Shown here one piece after another: positions 2,290 through 51,436 of a stretch of DNA of 64,000 nucleotides. Under the pieces are notes generated by a model. It searched no databases. It was not told the DNA's origin and saw only the letters and a list, made by a program, of their open reading frames with translations. The translations under genes and the position numbers were made by a program. This DNA comes from Bacteroidota bacterium (GTDB lineage: Bacteria; Bacteroidota; Bacteroidia; JACCXN01), in contig JACCXN010000009.1 of NCBI GenBank assembly GCA_013696965.1, positions 6,751 through 70,750 of the forward strand, written 5' to 3'. Positions within the stretch are counted from its first letter, which is position 1; every line of letters begins with the position of its first letter.

Positions 2290-2529
2290 CTAATTTTCTG
2301 CTTTTGTTAATTTTATTGATGCAGATTTTTTTCTGTGTATCAATATGTAAATTAGTGGTAAAATACCTGCAGTATTAATAAGGGCAATACAAATAAACCA
2401 GGCAATATGATTGTTTCGCGCAGCTTTCCACATTGCTATTAATTTCCAAATGACTTCCCAAATAATTAGAATAATTATAAGTGGCATAAACCCTTCAAAT
2501 ACTTCCATGAAATAGTGTTTCTTGTCCAT
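2290..2529 (-). CDS. Small two-TM membrane protein with a PLDc_N-like (phospholipase-D N-terminal) motif.
   Basis: 79-aa ORF with two hydrophobic helices and a W…W…P…G…Y pattern (WFICIALINTAGILPLIYILI) reminiscent of Pfam PLDc_N; the assignment is from memory only. Confidence 0.35.
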   Translation of the reverse strand: MDKKHYFMEVFEGFMPLIIILIIWEVIWKLIAMWKAARNNHIAWFICIALINTAGILPLIYILIHRKKSASIKLTKAEN

Positions 2530-2673
2530 TTATTTTAAGTTTTTATTTTTAATTTCTATTGTTTAGTTTTTTCAATTTTTGGGGTAATTAAACCCTATAA
2601 ACAAATATAATGTTTAATTAAACAAAATAGGATTTTTATTAGATGGAAAAAGTATATGTATTTGAAAGCATAA

Positions 2674-2815
2674 AAGCGCAATGCCTTAATTTTTATGCTG
2701 CACTTGCCCATTGTTAGTGCAGGATCAGCTCAAACCATTTGTGCAGGAGATGCAATTACACTTTCTGGTTCAGGAGCAGTATCCTACAATTGGAATAATG
2801 GAGTAACCGATATGA
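2674..2815 (+). pseudogene. About 45-codon remnant of an adhesin-like gene (SprB/Ig-like repeat motif), cut off by repeat copy A.
   Basis: It translates to …SAGSAQTICAGDAITLSGSGAVSYNWNNGVTD. The C-x-G-D-x-x-T-L-x-x-S-G-A-x-x-Y-x-W pattern is typical of repeated modules in large Bacteroidota surface adhesins. The frame opens right after a stop at 2671-2673, and the protein-like signal ends where the repeat begins. Confidence 0.25.
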
Positions 2816-2817
2816 TT

Positions 2818-2905
2818 TGCTTTTTAACTGTCAGCCCGATTTATCGGGATAGCCCTGTTATATTCATTAGCGTTTGTGAATGGTTCGTGCATGGCTATTT
2901 CTATT
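2818..2905. repeat. Copy A of a REP/MITE-like intergenic repeat. It has the palindrome CCCGAT-TT-ATCGGG (2835-2848) and the core ATAGCC(C/A)TGTTATATTCATTAGCGTTTGTGAA(T/C)(G/A)GTTCGTGCATGGCTATTTC (2849-2901).
   Basis: The core matches 4172-4224 and 4261-4313 with 2-3 mismatches, compared by eye. The core ends ATAGCCATG…CATGGCTAT form a 9-bp terminal inverted repeat. This copy lies immediately 3' of the oxidase gene stop. Confidence 0.7.
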
Positions 2906-2907
2906 TT

Positions 2908-4128
2908 TTATCTCCCAATTATTATTTTTTTATTCAAATTATCATTCCCAATAAGAATGTTTAAATAATAGATTCCCGGGTTTAAATCACCGACTTCTAA
3001 TATAAGACTTTCATGAGTTTTTTCAGAATTTCCTGATTTAACAACTTGACCAAGAGCATTTATTAAAGTAAAATTAATTTTATCCTTATCCTTATTTTTG
3101 AAGGAAATTTCCAAATAATTATCCGTGGGGTTTGGAAATACATGAACAGGGTTATCTAAAGTATTTTCATTTAATCCAACATAACCATTAATGGCAACAG
3201 GAACATATTGCACATTCCAAACTGAATCAGTATTCATATTTAAATATTTAACAATGACATTTCCAGTAAATTGACCAGAAGCATTAAGCATAACTTCAAA
3301 ACGTTCACCTGGCATTATCTCCAGGGTATCACTTTGAATTGCATTAGGCATTGGCCTTCCATCTGAGGAAAGTATTGTAGCATTCAGTATTGAAGGAAAA
3401 ATAATTCGGTTATTAAAATAGCCAATGTTCGCAAGCCGCATATAAATTTTTTCACCCTGGGTTCCTGTTATTTTAATGGAATCATCCTGAGCTATTTGTT
3501 GTTCAGATTTACCATTAATAAGAAAATAATCAGGCAAATAAGCAGGTACAAGTATCATATCGCTCACGGTATCATGTTGAGGAGGATTTAAATGCCATTG
3601 CGAGTCAATTTCTGTCATTAACCATTTATAATCTTTATCAAATGATGGCCCACCTGTCCATGCCGATTTAACTCCATTGGCAGCACGAACCACTATTAAT
3701 CCATACATTCCCATTTGTAAATGCACCACATCTCCAACATGACAATGATAAATATAGGTGCCTGGATAATCAGCAACAAAAGTGTATGTAGTGTCCTGCA
3801 TGTGGCTAAGCCAGAATGAAGTAGCAGGGTCTCCATCATTGCGCGTATCCACATCCAATCCATGTAAATGAACGGTATGATGCTCTCCCTGTGATACATT
3901 TCGGGCAGTAATAATTACAGTATCTCCTTGTTCTGCATAAAGTATTTTTGCAGGCAAAGTGGGTGGGGTTGATAAAGTAGAGGAAAAACCCCAAATTGCA
4001 ACACTATTCCCGTCCCACATGCTTGCTGAACCGGTATTGCTACGCAGTATAACGGTATATTTAATTGTTTTTTGTGCCATTAACTGGAAAGAAGCTAAAA
4101 AAACAATCAGGGTAATTCTATATTTCAT
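2908..4128 (-). CDS. Secreted multicopper oxidase with a T9SS type A C-terminal sorting domain.
   Basis: Signal peptide MKYRITLIVFLASFQLMAQ. Copper-site motifs HHTVHLHGLD and YIYHCHVGDVVHLQMGMYGLIV (HCH…M). C-terminal …NYLEISFKN…INFTLINALGQVV…LNPGIYYLNI…KKIIIGR matches the Por_Secre_tail type. The six-frame ORF runs on to 4215, but that extension is just the upstream repeat translated. Confidence 0.8.
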   Translation of the reverse strand: MKYRITLIVFLASFQLMAQKTIKYTVILRSNTGSASMWDGNSVAIWGFSSTLSTPPTLPAKILYAEQGDTVIITARNVSQGEHHTVHLHGLDVDTRNDGDPATSFWLSHMQDTTYTFVADYPGTYIYHCHVGDVVHLQMGMYGLIVVRAANGVKSAWTGGPSFDKDYKWLMTEIDSQWHLNPPQHDTVSDMILVPAYLPDYFLINGKSEQQIAQDDSIKITGTQGEKIYMRLANIGYFNNRIIFPSILNATILSSDGRPMPNAIQSDTLEIMPGERFEVMLNASGQFTGNVIVKYLNMNTDSVWNVQYVPVAINGYVGLNENTLDNPVHVFPNPTDNYLEISFKNKDKDKINFTLINALGQVVKSGNSEKTHESLILEVGDLNPGIYYLNILIGNDNLNKKIIIGR

Positions 4129-4224
4129 ATGTAGATAATTTGTTTTTTTAAGGTCATCCCGATTTATCGGGATAGCCATGTTATATTCATTAGCGTTTGT
4201 GAACGGTTCGTGCATGGCTATTTC
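4128..4224. repeat. Copy B, a full 97-bp unit: a promoter-proximal segment ATGTAGATAATTTGTTTTTTTAAGGTCAT, then the CCCGATTTATCGGG palindrome, then the core with a perfect 9-bp terminal inverted repeat.
   Basis: It is directly repeated in tandem with copy C. It contains a -7-like TAtAATTTG element and overlaps the oxidase start codon at 4126-4128. Confidence 0.7.
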
Positions 4225-4313
4225 ATATGTATATAATTTGTTTTTTTAAGGTCATATGGTATAGCCCTGTTATATTCATTAGCGTTTGTGAACAGTTCGT
4301 GCATGGCTATTTC
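4225..4313. repeat. Copy C, a tandem duplicate of copy B (89 bp) in which the CCCGATTTATCGGG palindrome is replaced by ATGGT.
   Basis: ATATGTATATAATTTGTTTTTTTAAGGTCAT followed by ATAGCCCTGTTATATTCATTAGCGTTTGTGAACAGTTCGTGCATGGCTATTTC. Confidence 0.7.
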
Positions 4314-4445
4314 ATAATTTATTCGTTTTTTAATTATGCTCCAGGGAACTCATGAATGCTAAAGCATTTGTCTTTTAATTTTCATCCCCATATTCTGTAC
4401 GCCTGTTAACTTCATCGGTCTGTGTGCGGGATTGCGTAGGGTTTT

Positions 4446-5312
4446 TCATTGTTCTACTTTCATAATTAAAAACATTCCATTTGGATGAATCCCTCCTCCT
4501 GAAACTGCTACTAAATTATGATCATGCACGCTGTATTCTCCAATTTTATCGGGAACCAGTTCCAGAACCATTGCATCCATCCTCCTAAAAGGAAAAGTAT
4601 CTTTAGACCATCCTATTTGGTGATTCTGATTGGAATAAATGATGTTGCAATGAAAACCATGGAAATGTAAAGAATGGGCTGCCTGGCCTGTATTGGCTAT
4701 AAAAATATGAATTGTATCTCCTACATTACATTTTACCCTTGCGGTTGTATCGTTTTGCAAATCGGGAAAACTCTTACCATTAATAGTAAAATAATCAGGA
4801 TTGTACTGAGTCCAATCCACTGTATTGTTTTCAGAAATCAGGGTGTTAAATTCTGATTGAAAATCTTTTAAATTCCAGTAGTATTTTTTGGAAGTTGAAT
4901 TGTTTACACAAATCATTCCACCCGCTCCCATGTTTTTGTAATTGGGATATTGATATTCATCATAATAAATGTAAAGCCCTTGAGCAGCAAAAGTTAGAGT
5001 ATCAGTTATGGAATCTGCAGGACTAATTGTGGCATTAACACCTGAAAAGCCTTTAATATTAAAACCATGAATAATTGTGTCGTTGTTTATTATTTTAATT
5101 ACAAGTGTATCGCTGGTTGTACAGCTTATCACTGTATTTAATGAAACAAATGAACCTGTTTCATTAAATACAAAGCAAGGAAAAGTTGTGTTATTTACAG
5201 TTGTAAAAGTTCCTGAATTAATAAACAGTGTCTGATTTTTTATCGCAGCACTACTGTTAATTACAAACAGCAATGGCAAACAAGTCAAAAATAATTTTAT
5301 ACTTAATTGCAT
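4446..5312 (-). CDS. Secreted cupredoxin / multicopper-oxidase-domain protein; it is shorter than a full three-domain oxidase.
   Basis: Signal peptide MQLSIKLFLTCLPLLFVINSSAA. Copper-ligand-like motifs HSLHFHGFH and HDHNLVAVSGGGIHPNGMFLIM. Its loose paralogy to the 2908-4128 protein is visible in the NPDYFTINGKSFP versus PDYFLINGKSEQ stretch. Confidence 0.6.
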   Translation of the reverse strand: MQLSIKLFLTCLPLLFVINSSAAIKNQTLFINSGTFTTVNNTTFPCFVFNETGSFVSLNTVISCTTSDTLVIKIINNDTIIHGFNIKGFSGVNATISPADSITDTLTFAAQGLYIYYDEYQYPNYKNMGAGGMICVNNSTSKKYYWNLKDFQSEFNTLISENNTVDWTQYNPDYFTINGKSFPDLQNDTTARVKCNVGDTIHIFIANTGQAAHSLHFHGFHCNIIYSNQNHQIGWSKDTFPFRRMDAMVLELVPDKIGEYSVHDHNLVAVSGGGIHPNGMFLIMKVEQ

Positions 5313-12411: not shown

Positions 12412-12419
12412 TACTTTTG
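12412..12419 (+). promoter_or_regulatory. Bacteroidota -7 promoter element TACTTTTG (consensus TAnnTTTG), 20 nt upstream of the M20 peptidase ATG.
   Basis: Exact match to the TAnnTTTG consensus in the divergent intergenic region. The -33 TTG is not clear. Confidence 0.35.
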
Positions 12420-13854: not shown

Positions 13855-14004
13855 CCACTTTTACTTATGAAATTGTAAGATAGCCACCATACACAAACAG
13901 GAATAAATTTAACATGGCTATTCAATATCAAAATTAAAAAACAAATGCTTTTGCATTCATGAGTTCCATAGAGGATTAATTAAAAAACGAATAAATTATA
14001 TACT

Positions 14005-14469
14005 ATGAAAAAGCCTGTTTTATATTTGTTTATTCTGCTTGCAGTTGTTTCATTTTCTGCATGCTCATCAATTGAACCTTTGAGTGTAAGTAAAGTTGAG
14101 AATATTAAACTTCAAAATTTCAGTAAAAATTCCCTTGCCCTGGAAGTTACTTTTATAATAAAAAACCCAAACCGCTACAAATTCAAAATTACAGACAATA
14201 ATTTCAACGTTTTTTTGAACAATGCAGAGTTAGGAACAGCAAAAATTAAAAAGAAATTAATCATTCCAAAAAAATCTGAGGATTCCTACACCTTTATTAT
14301 TGAAACACAATTCTCAAAATTGGCAATGGGAAGTATACCAAGCCTATTGAACATGTTCAGGACAAAACAGGTGGAATTTAAACTCATAGGCGAAGTAAAA
14401 GTTAAGACATTGGGGGTAGGCAAAAGATTCCCAGTTGAAATTGTTGAAAAAGTGGCTATTGGAAAATAA
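14005..14469 (+). CDS. Lipoprotein with an LEA14 / LEA_2-like (NDR1/HIN1-type) fold.
   Basis: Lipobox …SFSAC; the pattern …NPNRYKFKITDNNFNVFLNNAELGTAKIKKKLIIPKKSEDSYTFIIETQF is typical of LEA_2 beta-sandwich proteins. Confidence 0.5.
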   Translation: MKKPVLYLFILLAVVSFSACSSIEPLSVSKVENIKLQNFSKNSLALEVTFIIKNPNRYKFKITDNNFNVFLNNAELGTAKIKKKLIIPKKSEDSYTFIIETQFSKLAMGSIPSLLNMFRTKQVEFKLIGEVKVKTLGVGKRFPVEIVEKVAIGK

Positions 14470-29991: not shown

Positions 29992-30033
29992 TTCAGTAGT
30001 CAAAATGAAAATTAATTCATTTTGACTACTGAA
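29992..30033. repeat. 18-bp perfect inverted repeat TTCAGTAGTCAAAATGAA-(AATTAA)-TTCATTTTGACTACTGAA.
   Basis: Read directly, with no mismatch over 18 bp; it sits in a 315-bp non-coding gap. No U-tract follows on either strand, so it is unlikely to be a simple terminator. Confidence 0.6.
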
Positions 30034-50942: not shown

Positions 50943-51383
50943 ATATGATTTATTTAGGGGGTTACAAATTAAAGCCGCTCCAAAATTATCCTTGCACATT
51001 CAATAACAAATTCAAGAAGAAACAAAAAATGAATCTTTAAATTTTTACTATTTTAGTGTGTAAAGATCAAATCATATATTTAGTGTTTTATAGAAAGGTT
51101 AAAAAAATAGTAATTGTACTAATTTTAAAATTTCGAGAACCCTAAAAAAATCAAGGTTGAATAAATTTCTTTAACTTGTATTACGAAAAACTAAAAGAAA
51201 CAGTTTCTAAAAAAGGTGTTTTTATATCTAAAGTGAAACTTTTAAGCAATTCAAAGTAAAAACACAATTAGGCCTTTGCCAAAAACGATGCGTCTTTTGC
51301 GGAAATTCCAATCATTTCTCTTTAAAGAGGCTCATTAAATAAATATATAAAGCCCAGGAATAAGGTTAAGTTAAACAAAAAAA

Positions 51384-51411
51384 AGCGTCTGTTCAAAATT
51401 GAACAGACGCT
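51384..51411 (-). terminator. Intrinsic terminator after the second TonB gene: 11-bp stem AGCGTCTGTTC/GAACAGACGCT, 6-nt loop, then 8 U on the minus-strand transcript (an A-run on plus makes it bidirectional in form).
   Basis: CAAAAAAAAGCGTCTGTTCAAAATTGAACAGACGCTTAAAATTT read directly; 26 nt downstream of the stop. Confidence 0.6.
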
Positions 51412-51436
51412 TAAAATTTCTATTAAATCTAAAGGC

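Follow-up and report, generated by a model that had tools for sequence, protein, structure and literature searches.

Short head-to-tail repeats at ATGAAA start codons in a Bacteroidota lineage: a probable family of inserted elements

We analyzed a 64,000-nt stretch of Bacteroidota DNA (hereafter the window; the sequence containing it is contig DASRQY010000008.1 of the metagenome-assembled genome (MAG) GCA_035696205.1, DASRQY01), in which short repeats lie at both ends of a multicopper oxidase gene and separate it from an oxidase-like gene upstream. Pfam identified the domains Cu-oxidase, Cu-oxidase_2, Cu-oxidase_3 and Por_Secre_tail in the oxidase, bearing out the description of a repeat-bracketed multicopper oxidase secreted by the type IX secretion system (T9SS) that had been given by an earlier reading made from the letters of the window (the sequence-only reading). 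The true start of the gene is the ATG at 4126-4128 (MKYRITL...), which is followed by a signal peptide. Between the two genes there is a spacer of 317 nt (4129-4445) composed, in the order of the gene strand, of unit X, module 2, unit C and unit B; to judge from its sequence, the whole spacer is inserted repeat DNA. A further unit, unit A, lies at the other end of the oxidase gene, beside a short open reading frame (ORF) fragment (Table 1).

Table 1. Positions of the repeats and of the neighboring features in the window
Feature	Position	Strand	Remarks
Short ORF fragment (AGSAQTICAGDAITLSGSGAVSYNWNNGVTD)	2674..2815	+	ends at unit A; no Pfam hit; E = 0.055 to the PKD/CHU_C protein of the window
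Unit A (type I, 92 nt)	2810..2901	-	6 nt 3' of the oxidase stop; abuts the ORF remnant
Multicopper oxidase gene (406 aa, T9SS C-terminal sorting domain)	2908..4128	-	bracketed by repeats
Right ATGAAA copy	4123..4128	-	Met-Lys start of the oxidase gene
Unit B (type I, 98 nt)	4127..4224	-	nhmmer E = 1.9e-33
Unit C (type II, 89 nt)	4225..4313	-	head to tail with unit B
Module 2 (70-nt repeat)	4314..4382	-	short AATGC(T)/(A)GCATT hairpin; ends in TTAAAAAACGAATAAATTAT
Unit X (putative diverged unit)	4383..4443	-	immediately follows the left ATGAAA; nhmmer E = 1.1e-5, a score to which module 2 contributes
Left ATGAAA copy	4444..4449	-	TGA at 4446-4448 is the stop of the upstream oxidase-like gene
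Upstream oxidase-like gene (288 aa)	4446..5312	-	overlaps the oxidase gene in relatives
w14k: diverged unit (stem ATAGCCA/TGGCTAT, 13880-13921) and module 2 (13927-13999)	13869..14006	+	nhmmer E = 4.2e-15

A repeat finder placed three copies (2812-2901, 4135-4224 and 4224-4313) in one family, aligned without gaps and with 91% and 69% identity to the reference copy. Searching the 64 kb with the 24-nt core GTTATATTCATTAGCGTTTGTGAA gave 3 exact matches and no other at up to 3 mismatches, with 0 expected from 100 shuffles. These results confirmed the three-copy repeat with a core of about 55 bp proposed by the sequence-only reading, whose further details stood in part. The palindrome CCCGATTTATCGGG, a perfect 6+6 dyad (CCCGAT-TT-ATCGGG), is indeed found in two copies, as it occurs in the window at 2835-2848 (copy A) and 4158-4171 (copy B) only. 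The 9-bp inverted repeat ATAGCCATG/CATGGCTAT also exists, but it is perfect only in copy B (9/9, against 8/9 in copies A and C), and it bounds just the 53-nt core, beyond which another 35-45 nt are conserved on one side. The extent given to the repeat did not hold, considering that repeated DNA reaches 4445.

Read on the gene strand, units of 89-99 nt share one layout. They open with (TAT)GAAAT and continue with a hairpin, ATAGCC(ATG)...(CAT)GGCTAT, that encloses a conserved 35-nt loop; after this core hairpin comes either a second hairpin, CCCGATAAATCGGG (type I, units A and B), or the pentamer ACCAT, which stands in unit C (type II) where A and B have the CCCGAT palindrome. The tail is A-rich, ATGAC(C/A)(T/G)TTAAAAAACAAATTATATACAT, and leads directly into ATG. 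At the 5' edge, TAT is followed by GAAATAGCC...GGCTAT, and the 3' edge reads ...CGGGATGAC...ACATAT followed by GAAA, while all junctions between units read ACATAT directly followed by GAAATAGCC and contain ATG AAA TAG. Unit B accordingly reads GAAATAGCC-core hairpin-GGCTAT, the CCCGATAAATCGGG hairpin and the A-rich tail ATGACCTTAAAAAAACAAATTATCTACAT, its final two bases being the AT of the oxidase ATG, whereas the 3' tail of unit A is shortened (AAATCATAT). When the gene strand of unit B is folded alone, the A-rich tail is unpaired.

One of the remaining parts of the spacer recurs near 14 kb. Module 2 is 90-91% identical to positions 13930-13999 on the + strand, where it belongs to the composite copy w14k, which fills the gap from the stop of an M20 dipeptidase gene (13807) to the start of a gene for an LEA_2 lipoprotein (ATG 14005). 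This composite has TATGAAA on both flanks, its 3' end being ...ATATACT directly followed by ATG AAA. Unit X aligns over its full length to a unit, with the stem TACGC/GCGTA replacing TAGCC/GGCTA; it is plausible from this alignment, though not certain, that X is an old diverged member of the family. The outer junctions of the spacer read CA-ATGAAA-AACCC on the left and CAT-ATGAAA-TAT on the right.

We also looked for the repeat outside the window. An exact 22-mer scan over one genome per species gave a sole match, the MAG 'MDV bin33', with units on two contigs: unit L1 lies between DUF2339 and a 410-aa hypothetical gene (L001), and unit L2, of type II, between DUF1365 and cfa (L002). At both loci the unit tail abuts the downstream ATG AAA. 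Unit C is 95% identical to L2 over 102 nt. The bin33 genome belongs to a close relative, its cfa being 98% identical to that of the window's species, which also has a unit at the DUF1365/cfa junction. This unit is of type I and that of bin33 of type II; hence, a gain, a loss or a conversion has affected the 14-nt palindrome separately from the remainder of the unit. The sequences concerned are L002 3335-3350 (ACCAT, bin33) and L043 1445-1470 (CCCGATAAATCGGG hairpin, window's species). Horizontal transfer between distant hosts was considered, as cfa of bin33 had no homologue above 71%, and was rejected in view of the 98%-identical cfa and the unit at the same junction in the window's species.

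Other assemblies of the window's species, recovered by exact-protein look-up, showed 99.9-100% nucleotide identity to it and revealed further arrays. On the oxidase contig of JAITZC01, the oxidase is followed by A'-module 2-D-E, a short ORF and DUF4907; a second contig carries a response regulator, DUF5652, the ORF remnant and A''-F-G-H-I, and ends inside the array. Contig 108 of GCA_035696205.1 begins in the array J-D-E before DUF4907 and has one unit more than JAITZC01, so that two assemblies of one species have 2 and 3 units after module 2; overall, arrays hold 2, 3 or at least 5 units. Contigs from Logan terminate inside units C and A. The independent assemblies DASRQY01, JAITZC01 and Logan SRR35771314 carry identical versions of units B and C and of the w14k composite.

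In total, about 16 distinct units were found at 6 loci in some 150 kb of sequence examined; to those of the window, other assemblies of its species and the close relative added at least a dozen, at four further loci. Besides the oxidase start, units lie at the M20 peptidase/LEA_2, DUF1365/cfa, DUF2339/hypothetical and oxidase/DUF4907 junctions and in the array beside the gene remnant. Full-length identity between copies is 85-100%, linkers included. All arrays run head to tail in a single orientation, and at 6 of 6 loci the flanking genes share one orientation, which is also that of the units. The arrays mix subtypes: unit C is nearer to L2 than to its neighbor B, while F and G are near-identical neighbors.

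Orthologous junctions in relatives are empty. The syntenic oxidase pair of GCA_030154785.1 (70% amino acid identity), which also shares the upstream iPGM-kinase neighborhood, overlaps by 1 nt as TAATG where the window has 317 nt, and the pair formed by a 63% oxidase homologue with the same oxidase-like gene overlaps by 4 nt as ATGA; the overlap in relatives indicates that the two genes form an operon. Deleting the oxidase insert together with one ATGAAA recreates the ATGA overlap found in the relative. By comparison with the relatives' sequences L050 and L049, the left ATGAAA is probably the ancestral ATGA stop/start overlap. At the other orthologous junction, the DUF1365-cfa spacer measures 9 and 4 nt in 66-71% orthologues and 99-108 nt with a unit in place; stripped of its unit, L002 reads TAA-CGCTAAATT-ATG, a 9-nt spacer. 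A search with nhmmer and the unit profile found no units in the relatives holding the empty junctions. Further copies and empty orthologous junctions were the opposite of what would have pointed to a single sequence peculiar to one locus. For w14k, an empty site was sought in a relative and none was found, synteny stopping before that junction.

The filled sites have one sequence in common. (T)ATGAAA flanks L2, w14k, the oxidase composite and every junction inside the arrays. Among the 46 genes of the window, 5 begin with ATGAAA and just 2 have TATGAAA, which are exactly the two preceded by units; at 4 gene starts the last bases of the unit form the downstream ATG. Moreover, a mini-ORF of 10 codons, MT[L/V/F]KKQIIYI, begins immediately behind the second hairpin and closes with a TGA that overlaps the following ATG (ATGA). 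Units B, C, D, E, J and L1 have this mini-ORF ending in ATGA, and F, G and H carry the same sequence.

On balance, we favor the view that the units are lineage-specific, non-coding and non-autonomous interspersed repeats of 80-100 nt, akin to mycobacterial interspersed repetitive units (MIRUs) or repetitive extragenic palindromes (REPs), that insert at ATGAAA start codons and supply a new A-rich leader; we regard this view as fairly probable. In the proposed mechanism, a unit would enter at (T)ATGAAA, the Met-Lys start of a gene, typically where this start touches or overlaps the stop codon of an upstream gene in the same orientation. The hexamer or heptamer would then stand on both sides of the insert, so that the upstream gene would keep its stop and the downstream gene its ATG AAA, the latter now lying behind the unstructured A-rich tail of the unit. 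Translation in Bacteroidota is initiated without Shine-Dalgarno pairing. With the tail as initiation region, a unit could settle in a tight stop/start junction, and the gene behind it would not be silenced. Each insertion would regenerate (T)ATGAAA at both ends, and repeated insertion, unequal crossing-over or both would build mixed head-to-tail arrays, a mechanism that would fit both the closeness of C to L2 rather than B and the near-identical neighbors F and G. Such arrays would vary in copy number between strains, serve as recombination substrates and break short-read assemblies. The family with its modules and orientation, the empty and filled orthologous junctions, the flanking ATGAAA, the arrays and the differences between assemblies are direct observations. 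From them we infer that insertion was active and site-specific rather than a passive spread, and the A-rich tail and the mini-ORF would sustain translation of the downstream gene.

Several observations weigh against this interpretation. Neither a transposition event nor a parent element nor an enzyme was found, and the family was seen in two closely related lineages only, being without match in metagenomes, viral contigs, plasmids and phages. The scan of metagenomes (18-mer, 241 million records) gave 23 loci, all of them chance matches with unrelated, mostly coding flanks, and viral contigs, plasmids and phages did not contain the family (by distant blastn for plasmids and phages). Given the two-lineage distribution, the spread may be old and slow; the cfa copy is orthologous in both lineages and was therefore vertically inherited. 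The empty sites come from genomes that are only 63-71% identical at the protein level and are not sister strains. Unit A has no GAAA on its 3' side, and the 5' side of L1 is GATAAAA. The flanking heptamer, identical at every site, fits a target-site duplication, a duplication-free site-specific insertion or a heptamer within the unit alike. The mini-ORF is frame-shifted in both L2 copies and absent in w14k, and may be incidental. Covariation in both hairpins was not above shuffled controls among 14 units. Finally, all data are MAGs, in which arrays may be collapsed or misjoined.

The family is without relatives in the libraries searched, and its behavior is closest to that of MIRUs. As summarized in PMC12548453 and PMC3184786, both citing Supply et al. 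1997 (Mol Microbiol 26:991), MIRUs are tandem units of 40-100 bp that lie in operon spacers in the orientation of the genes, are inserted at start codons and contain an internal ORF coupled at -4. The units described here share with them the size (40-100 bp), the direct tandem arrays of varying copy number (2, 3 and at least 5), the position between co-oriented genes in gene orientation (6 of 6 loci), and the insertion at start codons with empty orthologous sites (oxidase and cfa) and short direct repeats at filled sites. The mini-ORF of most but not all units, with its 4-nt overlap (ATGA) between stop and downstream start, may correspond to the internal ORF of MIRUs. The units differ in belonging to another phylum and in G+C (35% vs 65%), the likeness being functional with no sequence homology expected. 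They differ, furthermore, in having a strong hairpin whose large loop is conserved, a second hairpin in some units, a fixed (T)ATGAAA flank where MIRUs have a tetranucleotide, and a mini-ORF confined to the last third of the unit and missing from some copies; here, the A-rich tail may serve as initiation region.

A stronger form of the insertion hypothesis, which we put forward tentatively and think rather unlikely, would make the units a true Bacteroidota counterpart of MIRUs, mobile by means of a machinery that recognizes ATGAAA and divides or doubles this start, leaving the two neighbors with their stop and start codons, provided with their own initiation region independent of Shine-Dalgarno pairing and with a coupled mini-ORF, and maybe moved by the IS200/IS605-type Y1 transposase of the same genome, whose flank hairpins adjoin the ATGAAAT heptamer. 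Such an element could invade tight operon junctions at little cost and, if moved by this enzyme, would offer a tractable model for the movement of start-codon-targeting repeats, a question that has been open for MIRUs since 1997.

The same arrays could have arisen passively, as a minisatellite that grows by local duplication, unequal crossing-over and ectopic recombination or gene conversion, with the ATGAAA position reflecting survivorship. This would agree with head-to-tail arrays of variable number, with near-identical neighbors such as F and G, with the exchange of subtypes at the orthologous cfa locus, which resembles gene conversion, and with the A'/A'' crossover, which means that units recombine or are misjoined. 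However, single units stand at dispersed loci far from arrays (cfa, L1 of bin33 and w14k), adjacent units often differ in subtype (C/B, H/G), and one heptamer recurs at 4-5 independent loci, while microhomology would vary the junctions and hit neutral intergenic sites too. We consider a purely passive origin improbable.

Within the insertion hypothesis, it can be asked whether the units are passengers, of the type of REPs or of palindrome-associated transposable elements (PATEs), of a Y1 (HUH) transposase of the IS200/IS605 family that uses single-stranded DNA hairpins as substrate. To this model, too, we give a small chance, and so we do to its corollary that insertion would take place in a single orientation 3' of TAT (3' of TTTC on the opposite strand), with no duplication. 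Both assemblies of the species have, at a distance of 4 kb from the cfa unit, a 153-aa Y1_Tnp gene (Pfam 3e-26), and its product scores 68 bits with the IS200 model of NCBIfam (cutoff 55) and 27.6 bits with REP_Tyr_transpos (cutoff 80). Hairpins CCC(C)GAAGGG(G) stand in inverted arrangement on its two flanks, with (A/G)TGAAAT behind each of them; ATGAAAT, the heptamer of every unit junction, has 4 occurrences within 246 nt there, compared with 0.31 per kb for the window (about 50-fold), and the second hairpin of the units shares TCCCGA...GGGATGA with these flank hairpins. The absence of terminal inverted repeats, the subterminal hairpins, the single orientation and a fixed flank that equals the 3' end of the unit are IS200/IS605 traits (PMC6006769), and are also found in the PATEs derived from that family (PMC6006769), whose left flank equals their own right end. 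On the contrary, nothing corresponding to the core hairpin is found at the ends of the transposase gene, nhmmer with the unit profile gave no match at the Y1 locus, and REP-like hairpins of the CCCTTCGGG type are absent from the 64-kb window. The motif likeness rests on short AT-rich strings, type II units lack the second hairpin yet stand at separate loci, and the single such gene seen lay by chance within an examined locus. The two unit hairpins moreover differ from each other and from those at this sole Y1 gene, which sets the units apart from PATEs.

We also noted that the Y1 gene (L043 6363-6824, in the region L043 6240-7070; also L042 9750-10580) has, besides its inverted flanking hairpins CCCCGAAGGGGTGA, a tandem duplication of about 105 nt with further CCCGAAGGG hairpins, each then followed by ATGAAAT. 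The inverted arrangement of the hairpins resembles that of genes for REP-associated tyrosine transposases (RAYTs), but NCBIfam scores the protein as IS200.

A function in the transcript was weighed as well, namely that the units are structured cis-acting RNAs (a leader, a riboswitch-like element, a processing site or a stabilizing hairpin) kept by function and not by mobility. The units are co-oriented with transcription at 6 of 6 loci, folding predicts stable hairpins in them (z-scores of -2 to -4.4), and w14k and X keep a stem at a similar place with changed sequence (TAGCC/GGCTA vs TACGC/GCGTA). Against this, the stem is broken in units D, E and L1, no covariation above controls was detected among 14 units, and Rfam gave no match even at E up to 10: the whole 64 kb had 0 matches at the gathering score, and the relaxed search of 2500-4500 returned only one chance match to a plant miRNA, at 15.7 bits. 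The identity of 85-100%, linkers included, speaks for recent copying and not for constraint, heterogeneous arrays and an orphan copy beside a gene fragment are ill-suited to a dedicated leader, and nhmmer did not find the family in related genomes. Altogether, a conserved RNA function appears quite unlikely to explain the family.

It is very improbable that the units form a regulatory module specific to the oxidase, as the sequence-only reading had suggested when it described a duplicated promoter or operator, with two promoters or operator sites in the tandem units and a palindrome bound by a dimeric, possibly copper-responsive regulator. The position directly upstream of the oxidase start, the perfect 6+6 dyad and the AT-rich TATAATTTG in each unit are compatible with it. 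Promoters of the sigma-A type in Bacteroidota (as in Bacteroides and Flavobacterium) have a -7 box TAnnTTTG with a -33 TTTG. The -7-like element that had been pointed out (TAtAATTTG, TATAATTTG) is found on the + strand, opposite to the oxidase, and departs from TAnnTTTG, a motif that is absent from both strands of the units and of 4129-4445; clear TAnnTTTG sites occur at 2602-2609 (before DUF5652) and 12412-12419 (before the M20 gene). A promoter and terminator scan found sigma-70-like sites no more frequently than in shuffles, and 0 intrinsic terminators. Moreover, units also precede unrelated genes (cfa, the LEA_2 lipoprotein, DUF4907, a hypothetical gene) and follow the oxidase, C, D, J and L2 lack the palindrome, in which orthologous copies also differ, and orthologous oxidase pairs are without any spacer. 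The proposal of a module for a copper-responsive gene was consequently abandoned.

That the repeats or their arrangement were made by the metagenome assembler is most improbable, since, although the sources are all MAGs or unitig-like contigs and the join of oxidase, unit A and remnant conflicts with JAITZC01 (a chimera across 46 identical bases being possible), B, C and w14k are identical in assemblies from different samples, units lie inside long contigs with intact flanking genes, and the protein numbering of a third annotation (MBA258...) agrees with the gene order of the window.

The description of the repeat as a REP/MITE-like interspersed element (MITE, miniature inverted-repeat transposable element) proved right in substance, the units being neither strict MITEs nor classical REPs. 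A MITE in the strict sense was rejected because the unit ends (GAAATAGCC to ACATAT) are not inverted repeats. Like bacterial MITEs, among them the Correia/NEMIS elements of Neisseria and the MITEs of Porphyromonas gingivalis (PMC4596501, PMC3184786), the units are small, non-coding, non-autonomous and intergenic, lie beside gene starts, and are of a kind able to alter the expression of neighbors and to cause misassembly; unlike them, they have no terminal inverted repeats and no matching parent insertion sequence was found (in the window, or at the one Y1 gene seen, which has different ends), and they show strictly one orientation and site-specific insertion at start codons. REPs are palindromes of 20-40 bp with a GTAG or CGTC tag (PMC3733652). 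A classical REP or bacterial interspersed mosaic element (BIME) was rejected, considering that no such tag is present (the stem starts with ATAG, and the CCCGATAAATCGGG hairpin is untagged) and that the arrays do not alternate. With the REP/BIME and REPIN-RAYT systems (PMC2817692, PMC3733652, PMC3337134) the units share short palindromes outside genes, a mosaic build, a clustered arrangement and a place in intergenic DNA that is transcribed, and their genome, too, has a Y1 (HUH) transposase gene between inverted hairpins; they are, however, 2-3 times longer, head to tail, untagged and apparently of low copy number where REPs exceed 100 per genome, and the Y1 protein scores as IS200 and has flank hairpins (CCCCGAAGGGGTGA) that differ from the unit core.

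BOX elements of Streptococcus pneumoniae are built of boxA, a variable number of boxB and boxC, and are predicted to fold stably in intergenic transcripts. The units resemble them in their modular build, variable number of tandem modules and predicted stable fold, but the modules are different; for BOX, we know of no association with start codons. Two other candidates were rejected. Coding potential of the unit was discarded, as the frames are open in some copies and closed in others; a protein search with the concatenated six-frame translations of the unit gave no scored match. An integron attC or cassette array, which calls for R''/R' core sites (RYYYAAC ... GTTRRRY) and a nearby IntI integrase, was discarded because the unit is not enclosed by a GTTRRRY pair, the gene lists of the window contain no integrase, and the units lie inside a conserved operon. 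The same gene lists contain no transposase.

Unit A marks a place where assemblies disagree. The window equals the remnant contig of JAITZC01 up to 2904 and its oxidase contig from 2815, the two overlapping on unit A, and A' and A'' share 46 identical bases. Two assemblies that are 99.9% identical thus disagree exactly at this unit (window 2810-2907 vs L034 5401-5760, L038 5376-5795 and L046 1-310): the window joins the oxidase to the remnant and DUF5652, while JAITZC01 joins it to A'-module 2-D-E-DUF4907 and places the remnant beside the array F-G-H-I. The junction at unit A is either a recombinant between two direct units or a chimeric contig; the protein numbering of the third annotation follows the window order, but may derive from the same reads. 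The sequence-only reading had seen insertion or recombination at this copy, and the link with a rearrangement holds, with recombination and assembly chimera both possible. It had also noticed an adhesin-like remnant truncated here. The truncation point is present in both assemblies, whereas the adhesin identity is only marginal: from its similarity to the PKD/CHU_C protein, the fragment is possibly a remnant of a surface protein with Ig-like repeats. The gene order left of 2810 should be treated with caution.

Taken as inserted repeat DNA in a formerly overlapping two-gene operon, the 5' region of the oxidase is not a regulatory region, and the repeats explain the contig breaks and disagreements of this species at these loci. 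The variable arrays could serve as strain markers. To our knowledge, small repeats that settle at start codons are known in detail only from mycobacteria; if the insertion hypothesis is correct, an independent family in Bacteroidota, with different rules of translation initiation, would show a convergent strategy.

Units also affect gene annotation. Unit B contains an in-frame ATG at 4213-4215, and the oxidase (protein P0123) was called with 435 aa in one assembly and 406 aa in another, an annotation artefact due to this ATG, the 435-aa ORF being an in-frame read-through of unit B. The cfa ORF of L002 can likewise be extended by 18 codons into the unit. The tail of unit B (4140-4167) is 71% complementary to the first oxidase codons (4079-4106, signal-peptide region, GATTGTTTTTTT), and in the predicted fold of an RNA with two units the tail pairs with these codons across the start codon. 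The predicted pairing may be a product of chance in AT-rich sequence or may have an effect on translation.

Additional structures were noted in the window and in a relative. A near-perfect palindrome with 16-nt arms (TGTATTTAATGAAACA) lies at 5133-5172, inside the 5' part of the oxidase-like gene; near-perfect palindromes at 29992-30033 and 51383-51412 are intergenic and downstream of minus-strand genes, where they are possible terminators, the three spanning a range of 30-42 nt. No tRNA, rRNA, riboswitch or other known RNA was found in the 64 kb at Rfam gathering scores. The contig of a related genome ends in a long GC-rich hairpin (L049 5440-5479, GGTTAAGATGCGGCTTTGCCGCATCTTAACC), about 250 nt after its oxidase gene, a different repeat or a terminator at the place where the window's species has unit arrays. 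Diverged duplications with 67-76% nucleotide identity were also seen in the window: the paralogous pair 50266-50955/51459-52111 belongs to neighboring TonB_C genes, 40349-41015/43111-43726 to two large genes flanking a glycosyltransferase gene, and 10252-10848/10753-11349 is an internal domain repeat of the PKD/CHU_C protein.

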